Assembly: GCA_964596615.1 (NCBI GenBank)
Contig: CAZQUN010000006.1
Span: 1 to 55,309, forward strand
Direction: 5' to 3'
Origin: an uncultured Candidatus Saccharibacteria bacterium
Lineage (GTDB): Bacteria > Patescibacteriota > Minisyncoccia > Portnoybacterales > UBA2143
Length of the DNA stretch: 55,309 bases
Shown here: piece by piece, positions 36,057 to 50,293 of the stretch
Layout: every line of letters begins with the position of its first letter
How positions within the stretch are numbered: the stretch's first letter is position 1
Translations under genes and position numbers: made by a program
The notes under the pieces: model-generated
The model's input: only the letters and a program-made list of their open reading frames with translations
What the model was told of the DNA's origin: nothing
Databases searched by the model: none

Positions 36057-36617
36057 CTATTGGTTAATCCCTAAAAGCTCAACTTCGAAGATTAATAAGG
36101 CGTTGGGTGGAATTACTCCCGAAGCCCCGCTCTCGCCATAGCCGAATTGAGGTGGAATTATTAATCTCCTGACTTCTCCGACTTTCATGCCATTAATTCC
36201 TAAATCCCAACCCTGGATTACTTGTCCAGCGCCTAAATCAAAACTAAAGGGCTGGCCCCTGTCTAAAGATGAATCAAATTTAGTTCCATCCTCCAGGTAG
36301 CCGGTATAGTGGGCAGTAATTTTATCGCCGTTTTTAGCGACTTGGCCTGTTCCCTCTCTTAAAATCTGGGCAGTAATTTTAGTTCGGTCAATTTCCATTG
36401 CCTGTGTATTTTCCTCTGAATTATTTGATTCTTCCTTGGTATCTTCCCGATTAAAATCTATTCCTTCAATTTTATCTTTATCACCCTGAAAAAGCTGGAA
36501 AAGGAAATATATGCCGCCGATAAGAACGAGGGAAATGACAATTAGATAGATTACTATTTTAGTTTTATTAGACATAGTAAAACGGCTGACCATCGTGGAC
36601 AACGTTCGGACTATCAT
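36057..36617 (-). CDS. FKBP-type peptidyl-prolyl cis-trans isomerase, membrane-anchored
   Basis: It contains [59 protein letters not shown]...LIFEVELL. The start is uncertain, with ATGs at 36617, 36593 and 36575. Confidence 0.9.
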
Positions 36618-36701
36618 CCAGCGACAGAAAGATTATATCTACATTCCAGATTTAAGCCCGCAAGGTTAATTTATTAGATGTAGTTTCTACCAGAATTACA
36701 A

Positions 36702-36887
36702 TCATTTCATAAAAAAATCTTTAAACCGCATCCAAATAGAAAACAAAGGATTGGATTCAAATGAACCATATTCGCCATAAATTTTTATTGTATAGGGATA
36801 TTTAATAGATACAACAATCCAAAGTCCTAAATACAGAAATACCAAAAATCCGATAACTAATAAAAAAATTTTAGACTTTTTAGACAT
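36702..36887 (-). CDS. Small membrane protein, unknown
   Basis: 61 aa from the ATG at 36887 (MSKKSKIFLLVIGFLVFLYLGLWIVVS...). The track start at 36959 is a TTG. Confidence 0.4.
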   Translation of the reverse strand: MSKKSKIFLLVIGFLVFLYLGLWIVVSIKYPYTIKIYGEYGSFESNPLFSIWMRFKDFFMK

Positions 36888-37103
36888 AAAAATCAATAAT
36901 TGAAGTATATCAAATTTTACCCCACCCTTCAACTCGCCTATATTATAAAAAAGAGGCAAGAGCCGTAATTCTGGCTTTTACCCCCTTAACCTTAACAGAC
37001 CAACTACATTTTGAGATTTGGATTCCTCTCCTTTGGTTCTTTGAGTTCTCTGTGGATGTCTTTCGGCTTTGGGTTCTGTCTGCCATAAATTTGTTTTAAC
37101 TAC

Positions 37104-38117
37104 CTATTCTATTGGGGAAGCCGTAAGAACATTTTTTATTTTCCAAAAGGATTGTATAATACCCAGATTCTCATAATCACCACCACTAAGCCAAGTTGCT
37201 ATACCAACAATACATATTTCGCCGTCTATTTTTGAAACAGCCAATCCACCCGAAATACCAGAATCAATTTTTGCAGTAGTATAAAAATCCCCATTACTAT
37301 CTATACCGCTAATTATTCCATCAAGAACAATTAAATTTCTTTCGGAAATAACCAGTTCTGGTTCTCCTACACAAGGAAATTTAGGATTTAATTTGTTTAG
37401 AAAACAAGGGTCTGACATTTGATATTCTGCACCAGCTGAAGGATACCCGAAAACATATACTTTTTGACCAATAATGCCTTCGTCTGGGAAAACACCATCA
37501 AAAATATTCCCCTTTGAAGAACAAATAGGATAGTAGCTTAATAAAAGAGACTGCAAAACATCATCGGGAATAGAGGGTCTGTCTTCAACTTTTTCGCCGT
37601 GAATTTCTTCTGGATATTTAAGCAAGGCTATATCTATATCATCATCTAAGAAATGAGTTTTTTCATCATAAGTATACATACCAAGATATCTTCCATATTT
37701 TCCTTGAATTTCATTAAAGAAAATAGAACAGAAATTGAAATTATACCCCTCTTTAGTCATCTTTTTTAATTGGGCTACGTGGGCGTTGGTTAATATATAA
37801 CCCTTATTGTAATTAAATCCTTCTTCTGTGAGATTCTTTCCAGTGATTGAATTTTCAGAAAGATAAATCCCAGAACCATAAATGTCTTCACCCCATTGAC
37901 CATCACCATCTTCATCATACAAACATTCTAATCCTACTATTGATTTTGATATCGTTTCTATTTCTTCATTTGTTAGTTCTTGTGTTTGAATATTTTCTTG
38001 AGAGTCTTTATGAGATTTGGTAATTTGGGTGTAGACAAGATAACCGCCAACCGAAAGCAAGATGACAGCTCCCACAATAACGATTATAAGAACCATTGAA
38101 AGTCTTTCCTTTTTCAT
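37104..38117 (-). CDS. Trypsin-like (S1 family) serine protease, membrane-anchored
   Basis: The putative triad contexts are ILTNAHV (His), DIDIALLKY (Asp) and KIDSGISGGLAV (Ser). It has an N-terminal TM segment. Confidence 0.7.
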   Translation of the reverse strand: MKKERLSMVLIIVIVGAVILLSVGGYLVYTQITKSHKDSQENIQTQELTNEEIETISKSIVGLECLYDEDGDGQWGEDIYGSGIYLSENSITGKNLTEEGFNYNKGYILTNAHVAQLKKMTKEGYNFNFCSIFFNEIQGKYGRYLGMYTYDEKTHFLDDDIDIALLKYPEEIHGEKVEDRPSIPDDVLQSLLLSYYPICSSKGNIFDGVFPDEGIIGQKVYVFGYPSAGAEYQMSDPCFLNKLNPKFPCVGEPELVISERNLIVLDGIISGIDSNGDFYTTAKIDSGISGGLAVSKIDGEICIVGIATWLSGGDYENLGIIQSFWKIKNVLTASPIE

Positions 38118-38146
38118 AGATTTATTTCCTCTTATTTTATCCTACT

Positions 38147-38196
38147 CCTTAACTCACTATTTTCAAGGTTTTACCCTGCCCCTCAACTCACTATTT
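38147..38196. repeat. Two 16-nt direct repeats, CCTTAACTCACTATTT (38147-38162) and CCTCAACTCACTATTT (38181-38196)
   Basis: The two copies differ by 1 mismatch and start 34 nt apart. They lie in the gap between the protease gene start and the first gene of the R-M block. Confidence 0.6.
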
Positions 38197-38388
38197 ATTA
38201 AATTTCCTTTTTGGCTTCTTAATGTATCTTTCGGGATTTTCTCTCATATCAATTTTAAGCAATAAATCAAAATAGCCAACAAGGTTATTGACCATCTCGC
38301 TGGCTTCGGCGAATGAAACCTCTCTATCATAGTCTTCTTTTATTATTTTTTGAAATTCTAAAATGCGTTCTTTTGAAACTTGGGTCAT
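38191..38388 (-). CDS. Small acidic/basic protein, unknown, downstream of res
   Basis: 65-aa ORF with an ATG start, 4 nt after the res stop. Confidence 0.5.
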   Translation of the reverse strand: MTQVSKERILEFQKIIKEDYDREVSFAEASEMVNNLVGYFDLLLKIDMRENPERYIKKPKRKFNK

Positions 38389-38392
38389 TTGA

Positions 38393-40924
38393 CTAAATTT
38401 TCTTTACGGCTTCTGATAATTCTTGTTGTCTCTTTTGGAGCGAGGCGTCAAAGATAATATGATACTCAAAGTTTTTATTGGCTTGCTGAAATTCCCTAAA
38501 TCCCACCTCTTTAGCAAACACCTCATCAAAAAGGTCTTCTACCTTGCCCTTGTATTTCTTCTTGTTCTCCTCATAAGTCGTTTTCTCTTTGTTGGATTTT
38601 ACTTCAACCACTAAAAATCTGCCTTTTGTTGTTTCTATGAGAAAATCTGGAAAATAGCGGGCAATACGCTTTTCTCTTGGATTGTAGTATTCAAAGTAAA
38701 AATCGTTGTGCGTTGAGTCGGTTGCTCCGCCTGTAAAATAAATATCGGCAATCGCTTCATCTTTATTTAAGACATCTCGCAAATATCTAAAAAGGTCTTT
38801 CTCGTCAGAGCTGTCAAAATTATACGGGTTAATATGAAATCCCAAACGGCTTTTGCCGTATGCTTTTTCCATTTTCTCTTTGTAAATTACAAGGATATTT
38901 CTGCCCTGCTCAACACTGATTTTGAACGGATATAATTTTGCCAACTCTAATTCTTCTTCAATGGTCTCTGTCTTTTCTTGATATTGATAAGCCCCAGCCA
39001 AGATATTTTGAGTAATGAACAATAGAAATGCTGGACTCTTATTTACTTTCTTGGTTATATCATTCTTTGATAATCCATTATTCTCTAAAACCTGCTCAAT
39101 AGCCAAGCAAGGCAAATGAGTATAACGATTGATAACTTCCATAACCTCATAAAATGTAAAACCGCCTCTCTCTTTTATTTCTTTTTTTATTCTTGCTTCT
39201 TTATAGCCAGCCTGTTTGGCTTCATCTAAAAATATGCCGCCTTCCGTAATGAAAGAAAAATAGTTTTCGGGCTTGAATTTTCTAAGGTCAAATTTGATTT
39301 TATCTAAATCTTGATTTTGAACTGATAAAATTTCTTTAAGTGTCTTTTTTACTTTTAGTTTCTTCTTTTTCTCTATTTTAAGAGTATGTTCAATGGTTTT
39401 TTGGTCTTGAGCTGACAATTCTTCAATATCAGTAGCAAAGTTATTTTTAAGCTCTTTATCTAAAATGCGATAGTTTTCTTCTGAAAGGAAAATTGAAGCC
39501 AGCGTTGAATTATCGCCTATACTACGCAGGCAACGGGTTGAAGATTGTAAGACAAAAATGGCACTTCTTGGTCTCCTGTATAAAGCACAAGCGGCAAGCG
39601 AACGGCAATTCCAACCCTCTGTGCCTTTGCCAACGAGCAGAATAAATTGCTTCCTACTATCAATTGTATCAACAACAATAAACTCATCTTTATTTTCTTC
39701 GGCTTCGGTATGATATTCTAAAATCTTATCCAGAGAGATTTTTCTCTGTGTTAAAATCTTTTCCAGTTTTGGTCTTAAATCTTTTTGTAAGTCATCAATA
39801 CTGGCAGAGTAAAAAGCTATTTTAGGCAAGCGTCCTTCAAGCCGATTTTCTCCGTATTCGCCCCAGAACTTATCTACTACATCTTCAATAAATTTCTCCG
39901 TTCTTACTTTGCTATACTCAAAAAACCTTACCTGCTTCAAAATGCCTTTTTCAATACCCTGTTTCAGCCCGAAGTGATAAACTACATCAGCAATCATTTT
40001 ATTGCTCACATAAGGCGTGCCAGTAAGATTTATTACGCCCACGACAGGCGTCTTGCCTTCTTGATGGATATAGTTAATGGTCTGACGGGTTTTCTTTAGT
40101 GTGCCCTCAAGCGTCTTGCCGTAAGAGTGATGGGCTTCATCAACAAATACGATTAAATCTGTCAATTGTCTAATAGCCTGCAAACGCCTGTTTTCTATCT
40201 CACGCTTCGTCATATACTGCCAGTCAGAAAACAATCGTTGAGTGTTATTATTGTTTCGTTGGGTCTTCAAAATTATCTTCTGGGAATTAGAAATAATGAC
40301 ATTGTAATTACCGATTGGCGACAATGGCGTGGCGACATCTTCTAAGTAGTGATATTTAATGTTCAAAAGAATGTTCTGGTATTCTTTCGGGATTACCCGT
40401 GTATAATCAAAGGTTTTAATTTCCTTCAAGCTTTCAATAATTGTCGTGTCTGGGGCAAACACTAAAGCGTTTTTGGCAAAGCGTTTGTCTTCTGGATGAT
40501 AAAAAGACAATACAAAGTCATACAACATCATCACTGCCATTAAAATCGTTTTGCCAGCTCCCATTGTAAGAGCATAAACTTGATTGGGATAGTCAGAAAC
40601 ACCGAAGCGGTCTTCCATCAATTCAGCAATCTTTTTCTCGTTATCCATCAAATCAAATGCTTCTTCTTTAGAAATTCCTAAACCGAGAAGCATATCTTTT
40701 TTATTTCCGAAAAGCGACTTAAAGACTTCCAAAGATGAATTATTACCGACAACTTCTTTTAAGTAGATATAGGTTTCCAATGCTTCAACCTGTGGCTTAT
40801 GCAAAAAACCCACTCGCTTAATGTGGGTCAAAATGTTCAGCGTTTCTTTTTCCACACCCTTATAATTATCGTCTCGCCAGAGAGCTACTTTCTGCTGGAT
40901 GTGTTGTAAAAAGGGATTTTCCAT
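38393..40924 (-). CDS. res: Type III restriction enzyme, Res subunit (SF2 helicase plus PD-(D/E)XK nuclease)
   Basis: Motif I is TMGAGKT and motif II is VFVDEAHH (DEAH). The C-terminal nuclease motif is PDFLIETTKGRFLVVEVKS. The ATG at 40924 lies 4 nt after the mod stop; the track start is a TTG. Confidence 0.9.
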   Translation of the reverse strand: MENPFLQHIQQKVALWRDDNYKGVEKETLNILTHIKRVGFLHKPQVEALETYIYLKEVVGNNSSLEVFKSLFGNKKDMLLGLGISKEEAFDLMDNEKKIAELMEDRFGVSDYPNQVYALTMGAGKTILMAVMMLYDFVLSFYHPEDKRFAKNALVFAPDTTIIESLKEIKTFDYTRVIPKEYQNILLNIKYHYLEDVATPLSPIGNYNVIISNSQKIILKTQRNNNNTQRLFSDWQYMTKREIENRRLQAIRQLTDLIVFVDEAHHSYGKTLEGTLKKTRQTINYIHQEGKTPVVGVINLTGTPYVSNKMIADVVYHFGLKQGIEKGILKQVRFFEYSKVRTEKFIEDVVDKFWGEYGENRLEGRLPKIAFYSASIDDLQKDLRPKLEKILTQRKISLDKILEYHTEAEENKDEFIVVDTIDSRKQFILLVGKGTEGWNCRSLAACALYRRPRSAIFVLQSSTRCLRSIGDNSTLASIFLSEENYRILDKELKNNFATDIEELSAQDQKTIEHTLKIEKKKKLKVKKTLKEILSVQNQDLDKIKFDLRKFKPENYFSFITEGGIFLDEAKQAGYKEARIKKEIKERGGFTFYEVMEVINRYTHLPCLAIEQVLENNGLSKNDITKKVNKSPAFLLFITQNILAGAYQYQEKTETIEEELELAKLYPFKISVEQGRNILVIYKEKMEKAYGKSRLGFHINPYNFDSSDEKDLFRYLRDVLNKDEAIADIYFTGGATDSTHNDFYFEYYNPREKRIARYFPDFLIETTKGRFLVVEVKSNKEKTTYEENKKKYKGKVEDLFDEVFAKEVGFREFQQANKNFEYHIIFDASLQKRQQELSEAVKKI

Positions 40925-40928
40925 AAAA

Positions 40929-42683
40929 TTATACCGATACCTCAAAAGTCTCAAAGTATTCTTCGCCAAGCACATCAACAATTTTTACCGCTACCGCATA
41001 CTTGCCTTTTTTCTCGTAATCCCAATCATACTTGCCCTTAATAATTTCTTTCTTGCTTGGCAAATCCATAATTTCAGCATTAAAAAGTTTGCCGTTATAA
41101 TCAACATCAATCGCAACGCTATCTACAATCTGCCTAAAATCTTTTACTTTGGCTTGATATTCTTTTTTAAGTGTTCTGGCGTTTTCAATTTCCAATTTCC
41201 TCATCAAAATTGGCGAATAAAACTCTTTAATCTCTACCAATAGTTTTTTATCCTTAGCTTTTGCTGTGATTTTTGCTTCGGGCTTTTTCTTGAAAATGAG
41301 ATTTTTCTTATCGGTTAAAATATCTCGGATTTCAACTTTTACGCCAGTCTTATTTTCCTTTTTTAAAAAATCAGATACATCAAGCTCCATCCCAGAACAA
41401 ATAATCAAAACACCTTCTTCATAAACTGGCTCGCCTGATTTTGATTTTCTCTTAACCGAGAAAGTATCAATTTTATCTTCAACATTTTTCAACGCCGTCT
41501 TAATATCCAACTTATTCAACACTCGGTTCATCGGCATTACCCTCACAAAATTATTATCCAGAACGCCATCAAAATAACTTCGCTTTATCGGTTCTACGCC
41601 ATACATTTCCATTACGATTTCTTTTGCTTCCAGTTCATTCTTGAAAACATCGTAATCATTAACATTGTAGATTTTGAACGCAGGCAAACCCTTAAAATCT
41701 TTATGCTTTTCTTTTTGTTGCCCTTGAATAACTTGATTAAGTCGTTTGGCTGTCGTTTGTATCGCTCCCAAGTTAATATCACAGGCAATCCAGCGTCTGC
41801 CAAGTTTTTGAGCTACCGCAGAAGTTGTGCCAGACCCAACAAAAAAATCAGCAACAATGTCCCCTTCATTTGAGGATGCCTTGATTATTCGTTCTAAAAG
41901 AGCTTCTGGTTTTTGAGTTGGATATCCTATATGTTCTTCGCTCATTGCATTAACTTTAATATCCCAGACATCTGACGGGATTTTGCCCTTTGGCATTTCT
42001 TTTCCTTTCTGACCGCCTCTTGTATATCTCCATTCAGTCATTTTACTTTTATAGGGAACAAGTATTGCTTCTGTATTAAAAATAAAATCTTTATTTTTTG
42101 AATATCCGTATATGTTGTCGTGTTTATAGCCAAATCTTTCCTTGCCTCGTGCTCCATAATCATAATGCCATATAATCTCATTTCTAAAATTATCCTCTCC
42201 AAAAACCTCGTCCATTATCAATCTTAAAAATGCTCCTTTGTGCCAATCGCAATGCAAATAAATGCTCCCTGTGTCAGCAAGGAGTTCACGCATAATTAAA
42301 AGCCGCTCATACATAAACTGCAAATACTCGTCTTTTTCCCAAATGTCAGTGTATTGTTTTTCTTCTAACAAACTATGCTGTTCGCCTTCTACTTTTTCAC
42401 CTCTGATTTTTACCTTCTTTACATACTCGGCTTTGCTGTCAAAAGGCGGGTCAATGTAAATCAAATCAATCTTACCCCGATATTCTTTTAAGAGATGGGC
42501 TAAAACTTGAAGGTTGTCGCCCCAGAAAAGTTTATTAAATTCTTTGGAATTTTTATCACCATAAATTTCTTTTTCTTGAGCTGGATAGTATTCTATTTTA
42601 TCCAAAGGTTTTTTGCCCGCCCATTGAAGCATTGGTCTACCTTTGGCTTTTTCAATTGATTGTAATTGTAATTTTTTAGTCAT
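40929..42683 (-). CDS. mod: Type III restriction-modification methyltransferase, Mod subunit (N6-adenine, beta class)
   Basis: Motif IV is [10 protein letters not shown] and motif I is [15 protein letters not shown]. The central variable region is TRD-sized. It lies directly upstream of res. Confidence 0.9.
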
Positions 42684-42686
42684 ATT

Positions 42687-42831
42687 GTCGCTGAGGTTTT
42701 AAGCGTGTATCAGAGAACCAAAAAGGGTCTCCCGACACACCGACAGCCCCTTTCGGGAACTGCCCTATACCCTTTCGGATATAGACCTCAGCGACGAAGT
42801 AGTGGTCAGAAGACCCTTTTCATCGCTGAGG
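42687..42831 (-). ncRNA. Structured 5' leader of mod, with mutually exclusive helices and two GAAA-capped hairpins
   Basis: GTCGCTGAGGT (42687-42697), ACCTCAGCGAC (42785-42795) and TCGCTGAGG (42823-42831) can pair in alternative ways. AAAAGGGTCT (42721-42730) pairs with AGACCCTTTT (42811-42820). On the minus-strand RNA there are two hairpins, CUAUAUCC-GAAA-GGGUAUAG and CAGUUCCC-GAAA-GGGGCUG. Confidence 0.55.
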
Positions 42832-42882
42832 ATTTTGTGCCATACCTTATAAATAAGGGTTAGGCAATTCAATTGTTAATAC

Positions 42883-43080
42883 TTATGTCTTTTCTTTCTG
42901 ATTTAACAATTTCAAAATATCTTCTTTCCTGTATCGTCTATCTTTCCTATCGCCAAAACGAACCGCAACCAAAATACCCTTTTTGTCCCATTGACGCAAG
43001 GTATTCGGATGAACCTTTAAAGCCTCGCAAGCCTCTTGAAGTGTTAATAACTCTGGCAATTCTAATTTCATCTTTCCCAT
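42883..43080 (-). CDS. Excisionase/MerR-family HTH DNA-binding protein
   Basis: LLTLQEACEALKVHPNTLRQWDKKGILVAVRFGDRKDRRYRKEDI is an HTH_17-like pattern. The alternative ATG at 43071 forms an ATGA overlap with the upstream stop. Confidence 0.7.
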   Translation of the reverse strand: MGKMKLELPELLTLQEACEALKVHPNTLRQWDKKGILVAVRFGDRKDRRYRKEDILKLLNQKEKT

Positions 43081-43574
43081 AATTTTAATTTATCCCATTT
43101 GTTTTTTCTTTGTTCTAATTCTTGACGGAAATCCCTAAAATCAAACCAACGAAATCCTACGTCCTTTCTCTGACCCCCGCCTCTTTTAGGTTTAGAAAGA
43201 TATTTTTGATAATTTTCTTTCACTAATTTTGCTAACTCGTCTCTATTAAAAATATAAAATTCTGGTATCTGTCCGTGCTCAATCAAATTTACAAGAATAA
43301 CAAAAAATTTCTTTGTGCCAATTTTTTCTTCAATATTTTTATTTAATTTCCAACCTTGTTTATTACCTACGGACATTGTCTTTACTTGAATGTTTGCGAA
43401 CCTTGAACCATCTGGGGTAGTAGCAATAACATCAATCTCTGGGTTATTCTTAGGGGCTAAAACAGCAACAATTCCCCTGCTGGATAATTCTGCACAAACA
43501 AAATACTCTCCGCTTAGGCTAACTAATATGTTTTTTGAAATCTCTCTCATAAGATTTGATTTACAACCTAACAT
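43068..43574 (-). CDS. Hjc-like PD-(D/E)XK-fold protein (putative nuclease), unknown role
   Basis: The pattern GEYFVCAELSSRGIVAVLAPKNNPEIDVIATTPDGSRFANIQVKT matches G..E....L...G....(D)-(I/V)(I/V)A...(E/Q)VK of resolvase/restriction-type folds. The C-terminus is basic. Confidence 0.45.
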   Translation of the reverse strand: MLGCKSNLMREISKNILVSLSGEYFVCAELSSRGIVAVLAPKNNPEIDVIATTPDGSRFANIQVKTMSVGNKQGWKLNKNIEEKIGTKKFFVILVNLIEHGQIPEFYIFNRDELAKLVKENYQKYLSKPKRGGGQRKDVGFRWFDFRDFRQELEQRKNKWDKLKLWER

Positions 43575-43642
43575 TTGATAACATTATTATACAGCAGAGA
43601 AAAGCAATCTGCAACATTAAATGATTATTACCAGAAATTACT

Positions 43643-45604
43643 ATGACCCCAGAGGAAAAATTTAATCAAGAAATTTGGTGGATTTTGCAGGAAATAAAGA
43701 GAGATAACTATCTTACCCCGAAAGGACAGAAGATTGAATTTTCTTTACGAAGCCTACCGAAAACAAGAAGCGTAAGACGAAGGGATGTTGATTACGGCTT
43801 TCCGCAGGAAGAAGTCCAGCGAAAACTTTTATTCAAATTACAGGAATGGAAAGCTCTTGAGGTTCAGCCAATAGATAACGTTTTACGAGGGGGCGATATT
43901 TTCAACCCACGTATTTATGACTTAATAATCAAACAGCCAAAATTTGATGAGCTTTATAAAAAATACGAACTCGCCAATAGCCCAAAGGGAACTGAGCAAC
44001 AGGTTAAACCGATTTTAAGAAAAATTGAAAACGGAAAACTCCCATACAAAAAAGATGGGATATTTTATTCGCTCTGGAAATATGCCAACGCAAGCAGATT
44101 GACAGGAAAGAACTTAATCTCGTTTATGGATTTAGCACCTCTGGAAGGAAATCCCCGTTTCGCTATTTTTGATTTTTTAAACAGCTTGCAGGAATTAAAA
44201 ATTGAACTGGAAGACATAACCTTTCACAAAGATATTTACAAAAAATACTGCAAAACAGAACACGATTATATAACCGACTACATCACTAAAAATCCCAAAG
44301 CAGACTTCAGTAAAGCGATTAAAAAATTATTCAAAAATAAAGCTACTTTTGATGATATTTCTAAGATACTCGGCAAATTTGATGAATTTGTAAAAATGAA
44401 ATTGCAACTTAATGGGCTTTTAGAATTTGTTGAATTTAGCCCGTCTCCATCAGCAAAAAATATAAAACCCCTTAAGAAGGATTTGGAAACATACATTAAC
44501 TGCTTCATTGAGGATAAACTTTTTTCTCCCGAATTAAAGAATTTTTATAGATTTTCAAGACAGAAAGAAATCTTTTTACAACAAATAGAAAATGATGTGC
44601 AGGACTATGGATTAAATTTTGTATTCAGACAAGGAGAAATTATAGGAGTCAGAAAAGGTCGTGGTGCGACAATAGGCAAAGACGAAGCATATTTGTTCAT
44701 CCATACCTTATCAGCTTTAGAAAAGCAGGGCTTCTTTGAAATAGAGAGTATTTTAATTATAGATATGGACGTCCCACCAGAAAAACAAACTGATGACTAT
44801 AAAATTAAAATAATGGCTTCAGAAAAATTATTAAGTGAATATGGAAACAAAAAGGAAGAAACGACTTTAATAAGTAGTAAGAAGAAAATAGATTATAACA
44901 GCAAAGCAGAACGTCTGGCGTGGGAGAAAAAATGGGATACTCTCCAAACCATTAAAACAGCCTATGTTTCGTCTGGTTGGGCAAATAACATAATTATACC
45001 CATTAAAAAACTCACTATAAAAGACAGGACTACCGAAGAAATAGACAGCATTATTTCTGGTTTTCAAAAAGAAGATTATTTTAAAAAATGGGTCAGAGAA
45101 AAAGAGATTTATGTAATTGAAAATATCAATCACGATGAATTTGACAAACTCTACGCTCAAACAAAAAACATTTATAAGAAGTTTGCTAAAACCCATCAAG
45201 AAAAGAAGAAGAATCACGAAACAGCCGACCAGCCTTCAATCATTGCCCAAAAAACAAAATTTGATTCTATGACTGGCGTCTTAGCCCATAAAAACACACT
45301 TCACAAGTTTCAAAGAGGGACAAGAGGAGATAAAACAAGATTATTATTATTTAGAAAGCTATGGAATGAAAGACGTTATATCAAAAACGGAATGGTAAAA
45401 AGAAAAGGCAAACCCCTAATGCCAGAGTTTTTAGCTGTCCAATTAAACATTACCAGCGACGCCCAAACATTTAACCGCAACAAAAAAGCAAAGGACAACC
45501 TCTTTAATCTCATCAAAGGAATAAATAGAATACTAAGAAACAAAGGATTCCCAGCAAAAATAGAAAGACAAAATGCTATTCAGTTAGTAATCACGGAAAA
45601 ATAA
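43643..45604 (+). CDS. Large Lys-rich orphan protein, no recognisable domain
   Basis: 653 aa with an ATG start, followed by a clean intrinsic terminator. It is divergent from the nuclease-like gene. Confidence 0.7.
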   Translation: MTPEEKFNQEIWWILQEIKRDNYLTPKGQKIEFSLRSLPKTRSVRRRDVDYGFPQEEVQRKLLFKLQEWKALEVQPIDNVLRGGDIFNPRIYDLIIKQPKFDELYKKYELANSPKGTEQQVKPILRKIENGKLPYKKDGIFYSLWKYANASRLTGKNLISFMDLAPLEGNPRFAIFDFLNSLQELKIELEDITFHKDIYKKYCKTEHDYITDYITKNPKADFSKAIKKLFKNKATFDDISKILGKFDEFVKMKLQLNGLLEFVEFSPSPSAKNIKPLKKDLETYINCFIEDKLFSPELKNFYRFSRQKEIFLQQIENDVQDYGLNFVFRQGEIIGVRKGRGATIGKDEAYLFIHTLSALEKQGFFEIESILIIDMDVPPEKQTDDYKIKIMASEKLLSEYGNKKEETTLISSKKKIDYNSKAERLAWEKKWDTLQTIKTAYVSSGWANNIIIPIKKLTIKDRTTEEIDSIISGFQKEDYFKKWVREKEIYVIENINHDEFDKLYAQTKNIYKKFAKTHQEKKKNHETADQPSIIAQKTKFDSMTGVLAHKNTLHKFQRGTRGDKTRLLLFRKLWNERRYIKNGMVKRKGKPLMPEFLAVQLNITSDAQTFNRNKKAKDNLFNLIKGINRILRNKGFPAKIERQNAIQLVITEK

Positions 45605-45632
45605 TCGGAGTGCTAAAAAGGTGATTAAATTT

Positions 45633-45657
45633 GCCCTCAATTAAGAGGGCTTTTTTA
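45633..45657 (+). terminator. Rho-independent terminator after the 653-aa gene
   Basis: GCCCTC-AATTAA-GAGGGC followed by TTTTTT. Confidence 0.75.
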
Positions 45658-45806
45658 TTTTTGCCTATTTTATCAACTAATTTAAGTTTGGCTATGGGGT
45701 AAATTTTTGCACCCCAGTTTTTATTTCAATCACTATGAGAAAATAAAAATGTCTCTGAAAAAGAAACACAAGGTCGCCTTTAATCTATTAACCTAACAAA
45801 AATTAT

Positions 45807-46079
45807 ATGACCAAAAAATTACAAAAAAGTCGGGCTTATGATGACCCAGATATTTACTGGGCAACTTTTGATTTGGGTTGTGCCTCTGCCGTCATCACAG
45901 CAGGATTTGAACTTATTTCATTAGAAAAATCCAATCCACGCAAAGTCCAATTTATCTTTCGCCGAGAAGTCGGAATAGAAAAAGTCGTTGATGACTACTG
46001 GGCAGACCGCTTAGAAATTAAGGCACGAACATTTTTTGATAATGTCAAAATGTTAAAAAATCGTATCTACAGCGAATAA
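45807..46079 (+). CDS. Small protein resembling DUF5659-type proteins of small mobile elements
   Basis: 90 aa containing TFDLGCASAVITAGFELISLEKSNPRKVQFIFRRE...DDYWADRLEIKARTFFDNVKMLKNRIY. The family assignment is from memory of the pattern only. Confidence 0.4.
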   Translation: MTKKLQKSRAYDDPDIYWATFDLGCASAVITAGFELISLEKSNPRKVQFIFRREVGIEKVVDDYWADRLEIKARTFFDNVKMLKNRIYSE

Positions 46080-46081
46080 AT

Positions 46082-46279
46082 ATGCTATCGGAAGAACAAA
46101 TCACAAAATTCCAGATACTTTATAGAAATCGCTTCGGCAAAGAAATTAGCCGAGAAGAAGCCTATGAAAAAGGAAGTAAGCTTATTCGGCTTGTGGAACT
46201 AATTTATAAGCCAATGACAAAAAATGACTATAAACGACTACAAAAACGCCGCAAGGAAACCGAAAAAGATTTGACTTAA
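46082..46279 (+). CDS. Small protein, unknown
   Basis: 65-aa ORF starting 3 nt after the previous stop. Confidence 0.5.
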   Translation: MLSEEQITKFQILYRNRFGKEISREEAYEKGSKLIRLVELIYKPMTKNDYKRLQKRRKETEKDLT

Positions 46280-46341
46280 AAATTACGCTTGGAGTATTCC
46301 CCGAAATTTCGGGACAACAAAATTAAGTCATTAAGACAATT

Positions 46342-47544
46342 ATGGATACTTCAAGACAAATAAAAAAGCAGGATTATATGCTTGATACGATAGCTATAAA
46401 AGTAATACACCCAGAATTTAAGGTTGCCAACCCCAACCTTTTTACTCCTGCTTTTGTCATTCAAAGCAATTATTTTAATTATCAATACGGACACAATAGA
46501 TTTAGAAAATACAAACAAAATCCAAGTGCCCAAGATAAGCAAAATGACATACACAATCCACGCCTTACGGCTTATCAACGATTTAGAGAAAATATACCAA
46601 CCTATGACTTGCACATTGAATTTTCCATACCAAAACTGATTTTGGGGAATAGCGTCCAAGAATTAGAAGATAGCGACCTCAAAACAATAATCTCATTGCT
46701 AAAAACACGCCTTTTCAGAATGGGTATAGAGGTATCCGAAAAAGCATTAAACGACGCCGTTGTGGTAAAAGCACATTTCGGGAAGAATATACCATTATCG
46801 CACCAATTAACGGCACAGGACGCAATTTCTGGACTTTACAAGGCAGATTTAGGCAAAAGGAAAGATATAAACATAAGGCATTACGGGAACGATGGGCAAG
46901 CACTCTATTTCTACGCTTCATCTGCCAACATTATTTTCTATGATAAGCTACGAGATATAGCTACGCCAAAAAACAAAGCGATGGACAAAATCAAACTCAA
47001 ACAGGAAAAACAATTGCTACAAGGAATGGACATAGATAAACAACAAGAAATACTGCGATTTGAAGTTAGACTAACAAGACAACAAAGCCTTAATGCCTTT
47101 TTATCAAAAGCTCTTGATTCAAAGATTGAAAAAATAACCTTTGAAAAAATATTCAGTAAAGAACTTTGCCAAAAAGTATTGCTTGCAAGCTGGGAAGAAA
47201 TTCTAAACAGACCAGCCAATCAATTAGCTTTGAAAATTGAAAAACCGCCAGAAGAAGTGCTTGATGTAATAATTAAAAGATTAAATACAGACCAAAAGAA
47301 AAAAGCTCATTCTCTTAACAAAACACTGGCAAGCTTTGGATTATATATGTTGATTAACCATTGCGGTGCTCGGAAAACAAGAAATAAAATTGAGAAAAAC
47401 TGGACAAATAAAAGTTGGGTGCGTTTAGGCGAAAAAGTAAAAGAATCTGCTGTAATGTTAGAAGAAATACCTACTCTGCCTATAATGAACGACATACAAT
47501 CAGCTTTAGAAAAATTTGAAAAGTATAATTGGCGAACCGAATGA
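46342..47544 (+). CDS. Putative replication initiation protein (gene II/Rep_trans-like), weak call
   Basis: 400 aa. An internal M-L-D-T-I-A-I-K-V start context and ILRFEVRLTRQQ resemble rolling-circle initiator blocks. It lies next to the recombinase in a small element. Confidence 0.3.
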   Translation: MDTSRQIKKQDYMLDTIAIKVIHPEFKVANPNLFTPAFVIQSNYFNYQYGHNRFRKYKQNPSAQDKQNDIHNPRLTAYQRFRENIPTYDLHIEFSIPKLILGNSVQELEDSDLKTIISLLKTRLFRMGIEVSEKALNDAVVVKAHFGKNIPLSHQLTAQDAISGLYKADLGKRKDINIRHYGNDGQALYFYASSANIIFYDKLRDIATPKNKAMDKIKLKQEKQLLQGMDIDKQQEILRFEVRLTRQQSLNAFLSKALDSKIEKITFEKIFSKELCQKVLLASWEEILNRPANQLALKIEKPPEEVLDVIIKRLNTDQKKKAHSLNKTLASFGLYMLINHCGARKTRNKIEKNWTNKSWVRLGEKVKESAVMLEEIPTLPIMNDIQSALEKFEKYNWRTE

Positions 47545-47563
47545 TTTATCCACTTCAATAAAC

Positions 47564-47592
47564 TTGCTTATTATTGACCAAAGCGATATAAT
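47564..47592 (+). promoter_or_regulatory. Candidate sigma-70-type promoter for the recombinase
   Basis: TTGCTT (47564-47569), then 17 nt, then TATAAT (47587-47592). Confidence 0.45.
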
Positions 47593-47598
47593 GAAAAC

Positions 47599-47712
47599 GT
47601 AGCCCAAGTTGTATTAAATCCGTAAGTTTTTTATTAGGTTTCTGTCCTTTAAGGGGCATCTGCCAGAAGCCTATCCTTACGGAAAAGCAACTGGGCTACC
47701 AGATGTCCCTTT
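47599..47712 (+). ncRNA. Rod-like structured 5' leader of the recombinase gene
   Basis: Three stacked helices are present: 47599-47611/47688-47699, 47619-47626/47676-47683, and 47636-47644/47664-47672. The apical AAGGGGCATCTG (47651-47662) is also complementary to CAGATGTCCCTT (47700-47711), which lies just before the ATG. Confidence 0.5.
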
Positions 47713-47720
47713 GAGTTTTA

Positions 47721-49490
47721 ATGGAAAATAAAACTGATAAAATTAAATACTTCCTCTACGCCAGAAAATCATCAGAGAGTGAAGACCGACAGGTTCAGTC
47801 CATTGAAGACCAAGTTAATCGGCTAAAGCAACTTGCCACTGATTTGAATTTGGATATTAAGAAAACCTATACCGAATCAAAGTCAGCCAAGAAGCCAAAC
47901 AATCGTCCTATCTTTGACGAAATGATACAAAGGATTGAAAACAAGGAAGCCGATGGGATTTTATGCTGGCAAATAAACCGATTATCCCGTAATCCGATTG
48001 ATAGCGGCAAATTAAGCTGGTTATTACAGCAAGGGACACTTAAATCAATCCAAACCATAGACCGCCAGTATCTGCCTGATGACAATGTTCTGCTCTTTAA
48101 TGTTGAGAGTGGAATGGCTAACCAGTATATTTTAGATTTAAGAAAGAATGTTAAAAGAGGCACGGAAAGCAAACTGCAAAAGGGATGGAAACCTAATCTT
48201 GCCCCGCTTGGCTACCTAAACGATAAGGCGGAAAAAACAATTATAAAAGACCCTGAACGATTTAACCTTATTCGCAAGATGTGGGACTTAATGCTAACAG
48301 GAAATTATACGCCACCAAAGATTTTAGATATTGCCAATGATGAATGGGGTTTTAGAACCAGAAAGTTTAAGAAAATCGGCGGCAAGGAATTATCCAGAAG
48401 CGGAATTTACAAAATTTTTACTAATATCTTCTACGCTGGCATTATTGATTACTATAATACTCAATATCAAGGCAAGCACGAACCAATGATAACGCTTGAA
48501 GAATATGACCGAGTGCAAATGCTTTTGGGAAGAAAAGGAAAGCCCAGACCGCAAAAACATCAATTCGCTTTTACAGGATTTATCCGTTGCGGCGAGTGCG
48601 GCTGTCTGCATACCGCAGAAATTAAAAAGAAACTCATTAAAAACACTGGCAAGATTAAAACATATACTTATTATCACTGCACCAGAAAAAAGAAAGACAT
48701 TAAATGTTCTCAAAAGAAATTCATTAAAGAGGATGATTTAGAACTACAAGTTGAAAAAGAAATAGAAAAATACACCATCCTGCCAGAATTTCTGAATTGG
48801 GCTTTAGAAGGATTAAATAACAAAAACGACAGAGAGATTGAAGACAGGACGAAAGTCTACGAAACACAGCATAAGGCAATAGCCCAGACTCAAAACGAAT
48901 TGGACGAGCTGACTAAAATGAGATACCGCCTATTGATTGATGACGAGACCTTTCTTAAAGAAAAAAACGAACTCAAAGCTAAAATAAGCCAGTTAAAAGG
49001 CAAATTAAGAGAAACCGAGAAAAGAGCCGAAAGATGGCTGGAAATAACTGAAAAGACCTTTAATTTCGCTACCTACGCTCGCCACAACTTCATTAAAGGC
49101 GGCTTAGAGACCAAGAAAGAGATTTTAATGGCATTAGGTCAGAACCCGACCATAAAGGACGGAAAACTTAGTATTAAAGGCAATGAATGGCTACAACCTA
49201 TCGCTGACGGCTATCCTGCCTTAGAAAAAGAATACCTAAGGTTAGAACCAGCCAAAAACCGCACCAATAAAGCAAAAAACGAGCAGTTATGCTCGCTTCG
49301 TGCACAATGGCTGGGGAGGAGGGATTCGAACCCCCGATCATGGAGCCAGAGTCCATTGCCTTACCGCTTGGCTACTCCCCATTATTCCTCTTCCAGATAT
49401 CTTCGGATGGCAACCAGGCTACTGACTGTCCCCAGGGCAATACCAACCCCAACCTGGAGCAGAAACAGAGCCAGAAAGTTTGTCTGGTAG
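47721..49490 (+). CDS. Large serine recombinase; the last ~70 codons are read from host sequence (terminator, antisense tRNA-Gln, antisense ftsX 3' end)
   Basis: The N-terminal resolvase domain is YARKSSESEDRQVQSIEDQ (catalytic Ser). A recombinase domain, a Zn-ribbon (CGECGC...YYHCTRKK) and a coiled coil follow. The tail ...WLGRRDSNPRSWSQSPLPYRLATPH is a typical antisense-tRNA translation. Confidence 0.9.
   Translation: MENKTDKIKYFLYARKSSESEDRQVQSIEDQVNRLKQLATDLNLDIKKTYTESKSAKKPNNRPIFDEMIQRIENKEADGILCWQINRLSRNPIDSGKLSWLLQQGTLKSIQTIDRQYLPDDNVLLFNVESGMANQYILDLRKNVKRGTESKLQKGWKPNLAPLGYLNDKAEKTIIKDPERFNLIRKMWDLMLTGNYTPPKILDIANDEWGFRTRKFKKIGGKELSRSGIYKIFTNIFYAGIIDYYNTQYQGKHEPMITLEEYDRVQMLLGRKGKPRPQKHQFAFTGFIRCGECGCLHTAEIKKKLIKNTGKIKTYTYYHCTRKKKDIKCSQKKFIKEDDLELQVEKEIEKYTILPEFLNWALEGLNNKNDREIEDRTKVYETQHKAIAQTQNELDELTKMRYRLLIDDETFLKEKNELKAKISQLKGKLRETEKRAERWLEITEKTFNFATYARHNFIKGGLETKKEILMALGQNPTIKDGKLSIKGNEWLQPIADGYPALEKEYLRLEPAKNRTNKAKNEQLCSLRAQWLGRRDSNPRSWSQSPLPYRLATPHYSSSRYLRMATRLLTVPRAIPTPTWSRNRARKFVW
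49274..49295 (-). terminator. Rho-independent terminator downstream of tRNA-Gln
   Basis: The minus strand reads CGAGCA-UAAC-UGCUCG followed by UUUUUU, 12 nt after the tRNA CCA end. The stem is only 6 bp. Confidence 0.5.
49308..49381 (-). tRNA. tRNA-Gln (anticodon CUG), CCA encoded
   Basis: The reverse complement is TGGGGAGTAGCCAAGCGGTAAGGCAATGGACTCTGGCTCCATGATCGGGGGTTCGAATCCCTCCTCCCCAGCCA. It has the U1-A72 pair and GCCAAGCGGTAAGGCA D-arm seen in bacterial tRNA-Gln, and the anticodon loop is CUCUGGC. Confidence 0.9.
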
Positions 49491-50293
49491 AAGTAAAACA
49501 GGTCAGTCCCTGGTAAATAGGACGTCACCTTGGGTGAAATATACCAGACTAATGGATACAAAATCAAGAGTGAAATCAGGGCGGCAATAACTCCGTAAAG
49601 CGCCCCTTCGACAACAAAAGGGCCTCTAACAAACCAATTACTTGCTCCAACCAGTTTCATTACCTTAATTTCCTTCCGAGCGGAGTAAATTGTTAATCGG
49701 ATGGTATTAAAACTAACAACAACCGCCATAATTGCCAGAATGACTAAAATGATGAAACCGAGTTGGCGAATAGTATTGGTAATGGAAGAAAGACGGGCGA
49801 TAACGGCTTTGTTTTCCAGGTAATTTATCTTATCAATAATTTGATCGTAACTGCTCTGGTTAAAAAAGCCGACAATGGTTTCGTATTGAGAGGCCTGCTG
49901 GGCCTTAATATTCAAACTGGCTTCTAAAGGATTGGATTCAAGTTCTTCCAGGCTTTGGATTAAAACATCATTATCCTGATGCTTTTCCTTGAATCTTAAA
50001 AGAGCCTCCTCGGTTGAAACGTATTCAACGCTTTTAACTTCTGATAATTTAATCAAATCACCTCTTAGGTTCAGAATATCATCCTCATCAGCATCAAGGT
50101 TAAAATAGACGCTAACATCAATCTTATCCTCCAGATTAGTTGTCAAAGAATCAACTAAAACATTAACTAAAAGCAAACTCGTCAGGCCCAGAATTGCCAG
50201 ACTCATGATTGAAATGGCGGCTGAGGAAAGCCATTTATTCCTCCAAAAACTTAACCAGCCAGATTTGAAAATGCGTGAAATTGTTTCAAGCAT
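49382..50293 (-). CDS. ftsX: Cell division ABC transporter permease FtsX
   Basis: 303 aa with an FtsX topology: a TM segment, a periplasmic domain and three C-terminal TM segments. It lies directly downstream of ftsE. Its stop codon abuts the tRNA-Gln 5' end. Confidence 0.88.
   Translation of the reverse strand: MLETISRIFKSGWLSFWRNKWLSSAAISIMSLAILGLTSLLLVNVLVDSLTTNLEDKIDVSVYFNLDADEDDILNLRGDLIKLSEVKSVEYVSTEEALLRFKEKHQDNDVLIQSLEELESNPLEASLNIKAQQASQYETIVGFFNQSSYDQIIDKINYLENKAVIARLSSITNTIRQLGFIILVILAIMAVVVSFNTIRLTIYSARKEIKVMKLVGASNWFVRGPFVVEGALYGVIAALISLLILYPLVWYISPKVTSYLPGTDLFYFYQTNFLALFLLQVGVGIALGTVSSLVAIRRYLEEE

Follow-up and report, generated by a model that had tools for sequence, protein, structure and literature searches.

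A large serine recombinase gene read through its attachment site into an antisense tRNA-Gln gene in a Patescibacteria genome

Results

The window analyzed here is a stretch of 55,309 nucleotides from the genome of an uncultured Candidatus Saccharibacteria bacterium (GenBank assembly GCA_964596615.1, contig CAZQUN010000006.1), and its subject is an open reading frame (ORF) of 589 codons on the plus strand (47721..49490) that encodes a large serine recombinase (LSR). The frame is free of stops until its end, after crossing antisense the entire tRNA-Gln(CTG) gene (49308-49381, minus strand, called by ARAGORN) and then, with its last 36 codons, the 3' end of ftsX (49382-50293, minus strand), which abuts the tRNA gene directly. 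An earlier note, made from the letters of the window, had described this frame as open until 49490 and as passing over both genes, and the codon count, ARAGORN and the ORF calls bear it out. In our reading, which we give a probability of about 85%, the ORF is the integrase gene of a 12.7-kb element as it stands in the integrated state (attR), the element having been inserted by the LSR in the 3' end of tRNA-Gln(CTG). The insertion lies between ftsX-tRNA-Gln and the gene of a peptidyl-prolyl isomerase (PPIase). The features of the locus, with their basis in parentheses, are:

36057..36575, minus strand: host FKBP-type PPIase, left flank (Pfam FKBP_C, E 4.5e-37; 87% amino acid identity to the orthologue of the same-genus genome G001)
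36584..36588, no strand: core GGCTG of the left attachment site (attL), predicted crossover TG at 36587-36588 (comparison with attR and the G001 empty site)
36586..36669, plus strand: stored native C-terminal tail, L531 + 26 residues + stop (motif match; tails of L157, L170 and P0078/L168)
36589..49313, no strand: integrative element, 12,725 bp, ends ambiguous within the 5-bp core (absent from G001; G+C, AT skew)
47721..49310, plus strand: element-encoded part of the LSR, residues 1-530, ending at the codon of the invariant Trp530 (Pfam, homologues)
49276..49299, minus strand: terminator hairpin and T-run, antisense within recombinase codons 519-527 (terminator scan; family covariation)
49308..49381, minus strand: host tRNA-Gln(CTG) (ARAGORN; the tRNA-Gln of family relatives at this locus is 92-94% identical)
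49309..49313, no strand: core GGCTG of the right attachment site (attR), predicted crossover TG at 49312-49313, i.e., tRNA nucleotides 72 and 71 (identity block, arm symmetry)
49314..49490, plus strand: host-encoded recombinase tail, codons 532-589 and stop (translation; orthologue tails diverge)
49382..50293, minus strand: host ftsX, right chromosomal flank (ORF; 96% amino acid identity to G001)

The 530-codon body of the recombinase is intact and has every invariant residue of the family. Pfam Resolvase occupies residues 11-155 (E 2.8e-19), Recombinase residues 182-269 and Zn_ribbon_recom residues 284-348; the motif Y13-A-R15-K-S17-S18, which holds the conserved arginine and the nucleophilic serine, is invariant across the family alignment, and the best match among solved structures is the C-terminal domain of the A118/LI integrase (PDB 4kis, E 4e-9), the match covering the recombinase and zinc-ribbon domains. 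A search of a large protein collection returned thousands of homologues of 525-597 residues and 72-82% identity from metagenomes of Patescibacteria, also called the candidate phyla radiation (CPR), whose C-termini are conserved through ...NKAKTEALASVRARW and begin to diverge one residue later. The last conserved residue in the window is Trp530, and its codon, TGG at 49308-49310, is the exact antisense of the CCA of the tRNA. Beyond this residue most homologues read xxxDSN(P/L/Q), the antisense translation of the tRNA T-loop, and a minority carry another, mutually similar tail (xIVDNVRT, xLxDxFRTxDW). Past residue 531 the tails of orthologues differ and track the local tRNA; in integrated forms they span from 2 to about 60 residues, the earliest stops being WGG-stop and WGA-stop.

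The bases 49274-49310 encode a block, ...NKAKxExLxSxRxxW, which is conserved in all orthologues, and are therefore element DNA. The earlier note was right that the frame crosses an element-chromosome junction and that the integrated protein has a host-encoded tail, as the conservation of orthologues to W530 and their divergence thereafter indicate, but it had taken the sequence from about 49274 onward as clearly chromosomal, with a host tail of some 70 residues. The host-encoded tail comprises 58 residues (codons 532-589, 49314-49487), and the junction, which had been set just left of 49274, about 38 nt too far to the left, lies in GGCTG at 49309-49313. Sharing of the C-terminal sequence by orthologues in other contexts, which the note had regarded as a sign against its reading, is found for 49274-49310, and not beyond.

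GGCTG is also the only identity common to both junctions (36584-36588 and 49309-49313), within attL (aaacGGCTGaccatcgtggac) and attR (cacaatGGCTGgggaggaggg), and the element bounded by these cores measures 12,725 bp, with a G+C content below that of its flanks and a change of AT skew. Attachment (att) sites with a short central identity and no long direct repeat are a trait of LSRs. A tRNA-derived direct repeat (partial tRNA) was not found in the window, and the ORFs of the element showed neither a phage-integrase (tyrosine) domain nor a second gene with a resolvase domain; the only other LSR match in the genome is weak and on another contig. Integration of the tyrosine type with a tRNA direct repeat was ruled out, there being no phage-integrase domain and no tRNA-derived repeat. 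When the recombinase is joined to the left end of the element, the sequence ...GTGCACAATGGC-TG-ACCATCGTGGAC... results, which is an imperfect inverted repeat centered on TG, and the encoded protein has 557 amino acids; the junction of a circular or tandem form would read ...CACAATGGCTGACCATCGTGGAC.... The final four bases of tRNA-Gln, G73-C-C-A (49308-49311), are now supplied by the element.

A search of the plus frames of the window for the minority tail motif gave a single standout match, in the plus frame from 36583 at the left end of the element, which ends in a stop. This stored tail (36586-36666) opens with TIVDNVRT and includes YIYIPDL, and near-identical tails stand directly after Trp530 in L157, L170 and P0078/L168. 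Only the attP configuration, circular or tandem, puts it in frame with the recombinase, and its first ~25 bp are the P' half-site. The suggestion of the earlier note that an excised form would have a different C-terminus was thus well founded, the tail matching those of attP-form relatives and showing the mark of purifying selection discussed below.

Related genomes were compared at the ftsX-tRNA-Gln locus, as the earlier note had proposed, and one was empty and one occupied. In the same-genus genome G001 (FtsX 96% and PPIase 87% identical to those of the window), PPIase, tRNA-Gln(CTG) and ftsX are contiguous and without an element; the start codon of PPIase is followed by AATAAAA and the TGGCTG of tRNA-Gln, so that the gap after the CCA end is 7 nt. 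In the sister-genus genome G004, the same ftsX-tRNA-Gln site holds a related element, whose LSR is 88-91% identical and which matches the window in terminator sequence and in read-through. The absence from G001 and the different relative at the same site in the sister genus therefore indicate recent turnover there.

Because its start codon lies only 7 nt past tRNA-Gln in the empty site, PPIase was probably the last gene of an ftsE-ftsX-tRNA-Gln unit, from which the insertion and its terminator have put it 12.7 kb away. No terminator was predicted at 36400-37150, between the minus-strand genes of the element and PPIase, and for this reason PPIase may now depend on read-out from those genes.

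Some details of the tRNA genes themselves were recorded alongside. The tRNA-Gln(CTG) of G001 (L007 1425-1498) is of a very different sequence type (acceptor CTGCCGGGC..., as in L027-L029) than that at 49308-49381 of the window, and sits at the orthologous position, so that the exchange appears limited to the tRNA body. Unoccupied tRNA-Gln loci of family relatives (L009, L015, L019, L023 and L025) end in ...CCCCAGC followed by non-CCA, i.e., CCA is not encoded, and in occupied ones (49308-49311 of the window, and L018) CCA is present, from the Trp codon of the element. In L008, CCA is followed by a P-arm-like trailer (CCAttgttgacgga), which may be the scar of a lost element.

The same register of gene and target recurs throughout the family. 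Among 80 genome loci, taken from contigs of one genome per species, 64 have a Trp codon whose first base is also that of an antisense tRNA gene, and the register is the same in 50/78 scorable contigs of a metagenome set. Eight tRNA types occur among the 64 registered genome loci (His 26; Gln 16; Asn 12; Ser 4; Trp 3; Lys 1; Asp 1; Glu 1), and several further genome loci have tRNA-like tails with no gene call by ARAGORN. Residue 531 tracks the target, being L at Gln and Asn, G at His, R at Ser and Asp, Q or H at Trp and Y at Lys, as would be expected of a codon 531 complementary to the discriminator base and tRNA nucleotides 72 and 71. An integrated copy at tRNA-His (L081) and an attP-form copy (L085) differ at one position in the 45 nt before TGG and part ways once the six bases TGGGGT are past; a regex search of the 13 kb upstream did not turn up the far end of the L081 element. 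The element of the window is a typical member of this very large and apparently unpublished family of tRNA-targeting serine-integrase elements, and we found no published description of LSR elements at tRNA genes in Patescibacteria or the CPR.

Two more distant serine recombinases (26-29% identical), L147 (G043:C2 585373-587039) and L148 (G044:C17 24449-25991), also overlap the 3' end of a tRNA-Trp gene on the opposite strand, the one in G044 being split into two ORFs; the overlap of gene and tRNA therefore extends beyond one LSR family. A 65% identical attP-form member (L063/L149, G042:C23 530783-532510) lies on a 636-kb contig of a 5-Mb metagenome-assembled genome (MAG) that bears the label Bacteroidetes, and the 15 kb downstream contain no tRNA; here the family may occur outside Patescibacteria, the contig may be mis-binned, or the island may be a long composite one.

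The architecture of the att sites was analyzed with half-sites numbered outward from TG, scanning the T-loop sequence TTCGAAC at every offset. Its best offset was position 13 in 121 tRNA (B') arms (6.40/7 matches) and position 18 in 15 P' arms (5.87/7 matches). The tRNA arm of the window has TTCGAAC at half-site positions 13-19, the B' half-site being composed of acceptor stem, T stem and T loop, and the P' arm has TTCGGAC at positions 18-24. The inner parts of the P and P' arms both show the symmetric consensus CCAnnGTGnACGA at positions 3-15, and this common sequence supports TG as the center. In the A118 integrase, the zinc-ribbon domain (ZD) reads a 9-bp motif that lies at positions 11-19 in attB and, shifted by 5 bp, at 16-24 in attP (Rutherford et al. 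2013, PMC3783163), and the offset of the motif between tRNA arm and element arm, in the right-hand arms only, is the same 5 bp. By analogy, the zinc-ribbon domain would bind the T-loop.

Discussion

From these features, we read the course of integration as follows. The attP site lies inside the 3' end of the recombinase frame, with the last ~10 codons, ending at Trp530, as its P arm, and the crossover would take place at the TG two bases past the Trp530 codon, which corresponds to tRNA positions 72/71; the P' arm encodes the first 8-9 residues of a native tail of 26 residues. Because attP is inside the gene, integration splits it, fusing the body to antisense tRNA and ftsX sequence (58 unselected residues) and leaving the native tail at attL. 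The element rebuilds the tRNA that it cuts, with the Trp codon TGG and the next base supplying the discriminator and CCA, and the hairpin and T-run in codons 519-527 supplying the terminator. Recognition of the acceptor and T stems would fall to the recombinase domain and that of the universal T-loop TTCGAAC to the zinc-ribbon domain, which would explain the spread of one family over at least eight tRNA types. Excision restores a tail of the native type, and so does a second element arriving at that tRNA.

Several observations weigh against this account. The outer P arm (positions 16-24, in the terminator stem) has no T-loop-like motif, and the zinc-ribbon assignment therefore holds for one arm per site only. 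The attL site reads CGGCTG, whereas attR and the G001 empty site read TGGCTG, which means either that the host tRNA gene was without the final A or that a mutation followed insertion. The crossover at TG is a predicted position, placed by the symmetry of the arms and by motif spacing. The attP-form copies resolvable on long contigs are all in tandem arrays and not free circles. In independent samples, i.e., Logan contigs of public runs, in which rare forms are not visible and uncovered parts prove nothing, neither the circular junction nor an empty-site molecule of this element was seen, both of which the earlier note had proposed to look for. Lastly, an AlphaFold2 model of the attP-form relative L170 (35-sequence alignment; predicted template modelling score 0.36) has low confidence in the tail (predicted local distance difference test 36-62) and gives it no structural role. 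The model predicts two long antiparallel helices, 361-408 and 414-465, which would form the zinc-ribbon coiled coil, and a long C-terminal helix, 505-550, across the junction, at low confidence and with a disordered end.

The alternative to be taken most seriously concerns the tail. The overlap of gene and att site may be a neutral by-product of compactness, any tail or none being functional and the conservation of the stored tail being due to DNA signals at the end of the element. We consider this plausible, at somewhat less than even odds. It agrees with the span of integrated tails (2 to ~60 residues), by which an integrated enzyme, if it excises, must tolerate any tail, with the poorly predicted tail of the model, and with the first nine tail codons, which are the P' half-site and have no third-position bias. 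Against it stand the codons further out, which we compared at the DNA level in three close sequences, the window attL, L157 and L170, counting differences at codon positions 1/2/3:

window vs L157: codons +10..+27, 0/1/8; codons +1..+9 (P' arm), 2/2/4
window vs L170: codons +10..+27, 3/2/10; codons +1..+9 (P' arm), 4/2/4
L157 vs L170: codons +10..+27, 3/2/9; codons +1..+9 (P' arm), 3/3/2

In codons +10..+27, which lie 30-80 bp from the crossover and outside any LSR half-site, third positions account for 8/9, 10/15 and 9/14 of the differences, and under equal rates the first of these shares has a binomial probability of ~0.001; YIYIPDL is preserved through synonymous changes. This bias argues that the frame of the stored tail is under purifying selection and is a selected coding sequence, and the selected frame meets a start codon only in the attP configuration.

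A further proposal, which we put forward as tentative and would rather doubt than believe, is that the tail swap serves as a state sensor, with only the circular or tandem form of 557 amino acids being a competent or properly controlled integrase, coupled with a zinc ribbon that reads the T-loop. A regulatory role of the swap as such is likewise possible but unlikely. If the state sensor existed, the integrated gene would make a tail-less or junk-tailed enzyme of altered activity or stability, integration would reset the enzyme without a repressor, and an incoming element could re-arm a resident one. If the T-loop is what the zinc ribbon reads, tRNA specificity would reside only in the acceptor and T-stem contacts and in codon 531, making this a naturally re-targetable integrase family for sites present in every genome, with dozens of natural specificity variants on one scaffold in which the rules of att recognition and directionality could be tested. 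Either way, the overlap of gene and att site builds in a contrast between the enzyme made by the free element and the one made by the integrated element.

It is improbable that the element is a fixed remnant of a single integration, now immobile, with a decaying read-through ORF and a fossil tail. The lack of circular or empty-site molecules in the public-run contigs would agree with this, as would a contig depth of the element that is roughly that of its flanks in runs X2 and X3, and an integrated protein devoid of its selected tail. The 530-codon body, however, retains all the invariant residues of the family, G001 lacks the element and a different relative occupies the site in the sister genus, and the stored tail is free of stops and frameshifts and differs from that of L157 almost only by synonymous changes, all of which speaks against a remnant.

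On long contigs, the attP-form copies of the family stand in tandem arrays. In G041, an attP-form recombinase (LSR-A) is followed by an element of ~21 kb and then by LSR-B, which reaches tRNA-His with its Trp codon; in G043 and G044, an attP-form family member is followed by 12-15 kb and then by the distant LSR (26-29% identity) that overlaps tRNA-Trp. Evidently, a second element can enter between a resident element and the tRNA. The newcomer would use attR, in which the inner P arm (GCCAttgt...) resembles a tRNA trailer, and the resident recombinase would then gain the tail encoded by the P' arm of the newcomer. Short attP-form contigs without a tRNA (L151, L157, L168, L170 and others) may be circles or arrays. 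In L164 (221-1665), an attP-form junction is only 1.3 kb from tRNA-Ser(GGA), and a miniature or remnant element may stand there between the resident element and the tRNA.

A terminator scan detected an intrinsic-terminator hairpin with a T-run on the minus strand at 49299-49276, just 3' of the CCA end of the tRNA, and the earlier note had taken the hairpin (as 49274-49295) for the chromosomal terminator of the ftsEX-tRNA operon, with the junction just to its left and about 70 host residues in the protein. The hairpin and T-run are real (49276-49299), face the tRNA and lie directly 3' of it, as a host terminator would, and this part of the claim stands; its attribution to the host does not. An alignment of 76 family members, gapless from CCA outward, gives CCAnTGTGnACGAA-nnGAGGC-nAAA-GCCTCnn-TTTTT as the tRNA-strand consensus. 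The seven-pair helix has 74% of its cells paired, vs 58% in shuffles and 34-49% in slid-partner controls; helix cells changed on both sides number 93 vs 45 expected, and the covariation score is 0.47 vs 0.21. Being within conserved LSR codons and covarying across the family, the terminator is carried by the element, inside the codons for NKAKxExLxS, and it comes to lie directly 3' of whichever tRNA the element enters. A host origin is, moreover, contradicted by the conservation of the residues of 49274-49310 in thousands of orthologues at different tRNAs and in different hosts, by an empty site in G001 that is without such a hairpin and has the PPIase start 7 nt past the tRNA, and by the identity of attL and attR in GGCTG only, so that we regard it as scarcely tenable.

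That a sequencing or assembly error hides the true stop, a case the earlier note had considered, or that element and chromosome form a chimera, can practically be dismissed: the window comes from a MAG and contigs of run X1 break exactly at 49308, but in one independent 2023 study contigs of run X3 (3,771 nt, 45984-49754) and of run X2 (36505-37333) bridge both junctions with 0 mismatches, the recombinase of the sister genus (88-91% identical) has the same read-through, and so do independent loci in 64/80 and 50/78 cases.

Run X1 is a possible source of the window, and its 2,587-nt contig, which ends at 49308, matches ftsX and the tRNA perfectly; in other runs, several different sequences abut 49306-49308. 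This hints weakly that the occupants of this tRNA end differ within the population. The depth of the element in X1 was near zero despite the presence of all sampled words, which we took as a filter effect and not as absence. A single reported joint of 37723 to 39171 (side 20) was rejected as too short to trust.

The integrated-state reading has relatives among known systems, and the architecture is not unique. In mycobacteriophages with integration-dependent immunity, tyrosine integrases act on an attP within the repressor gene, whose C-terminus is changed by integration, the removed part being a degradation tag. The likeness is that integration changes the C-terminus of a protein, whose form reports the state of the element; the differences are that a tyrosine recombinase acts, that the repressor is cut and that the regulatory role is demonstrated, whereas here the integrase is cut and a regulatory role is a proposal. 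Archaeal integrases of the SSV1 type, also tyrosine recombinases, have attP inside the integrase gene, and integration at a tRNA partitions the gene to the two ends of the provirus; there the gene is split near the middle and inactivated, whereas here only the last 26 codons are removed.

Closest is DsiB, a CcrB-like LSR of the ssrA islands of Dehalococcoides, whose gene invariably runs over the att site with its 3' end and reaches its stop codon beyond the island, either within the tmRNA gene or in the island that follows, with tails diverging in length and sequence; these islands stack in tandem, and the gene was suggested to be fully functional perhaps only on the circular element (McMurdie et al. 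2011, PMC3146451). The two systems, compared by their descriptions, have in common a recombinase ORF that runs over the att site and finds its stop beyond the element, and tandem stacking at one RNA gene. They differ in the target, which for DsiB is the tmRNA T-loop with a direct repeat of 20 bp and here tRNA-Gln 71/72 with an identity of 5-6 bp, and in the partner of DsiB, a small serine recombinase (DsiA, CcrA-like) in a co-transcribed six-gene module, whereas the ORFs of our element include no second resolvase-domain gene; the element-borne terminator and the selected stored tail found here are not described for DsiB. The judgement of the earlier note that such an overlap in an LSR next to a tRNA gene would be unusual was therefore overstated, given this published precedent (PMC3146451) and its being the rule in a very large family common in Patescibacteria. 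We found no test of the 2011 circular-only proposal for DsiB in the literature, and the abundance of the tRNA-targeting LSR family and its selected stored tail make it a good system for comparing the free with the integrated enzyme.

With the A118/LI integrase the element shares symmetric half-sites around a 2-bp crossover and a distal motif of 7-9 bp lying 5 bp further out in attP (PMC3783163); A118 differs in integrating in the protein gene comK, in an attP outside the integrase frame and in a distal motif that is not a tRNA T-loop. Tycheposons are small cargo elements at tRNA 3' ends that form tandem stacks, with an LSR in 27/937 (bioRxiv 10.1101/2020.12.28.424599); they overwhelmingly use tyrosine recombinases with partial-tRNA direct repeats, and an overlap of integrase and att site is not mentioned in the text consulted.

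In annotation, long recombinase ORFs with tRNA-antisense tails are to be treated as junction artefacts of the integrated state, and the embedded terminator and CCA should be assigned to the element. Serine integrases, prized tools of genome engineering, as a rule target a single protein-coding gene. The very large natural family described here inserts at tRNA 3' ends, with an att geometry that fits the A118 structural model to the base.

Cargo of the element

The remaining genes of the element are:

37104..38117, minus strand: trypsin-like peptidase, a weak match (Pfam Trypsin_2, E 1.6e-5, below the curated cut-off)
38393-40981, minus strand: large helicase/nuclease-like gene (weak SWI2_SNF2 match, PHROG DNA helicase match)
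40929-42683, minus strand: DNA methyltransferase (Pfam N6_N4_Mtase, E 2.7e-54)
42883..43080, minus strand: 65-residue protein of the excisionase/MerR-type helix-turn-helix class (Pfam HTH_17, E 1.6e-11)
43643..47544, plus strand: genes upstream of the recombinase on the same strand, of 653, 90 (DUF5659), 65 and 400 residues (ORFs)

DUF5659 is the only recognized domain among the genes of 43643..47544, and a 168-residue protein within 38393-43574 matches only PHROGs of unknown function. The HTH_17 gene is a candidate directionality factor or regulator. In IMG/VR only distant relatives of the recombinase (<=39% identity) were found, and nothing marks the element as a recognized phage. By their domain matches, the methyltransferase and the helicase/nuclease-like gene (38393..42683) resemble a type III restriction-modification pair, and the relatives L154, L155 and L157 have similar mod/res genes at other positions.

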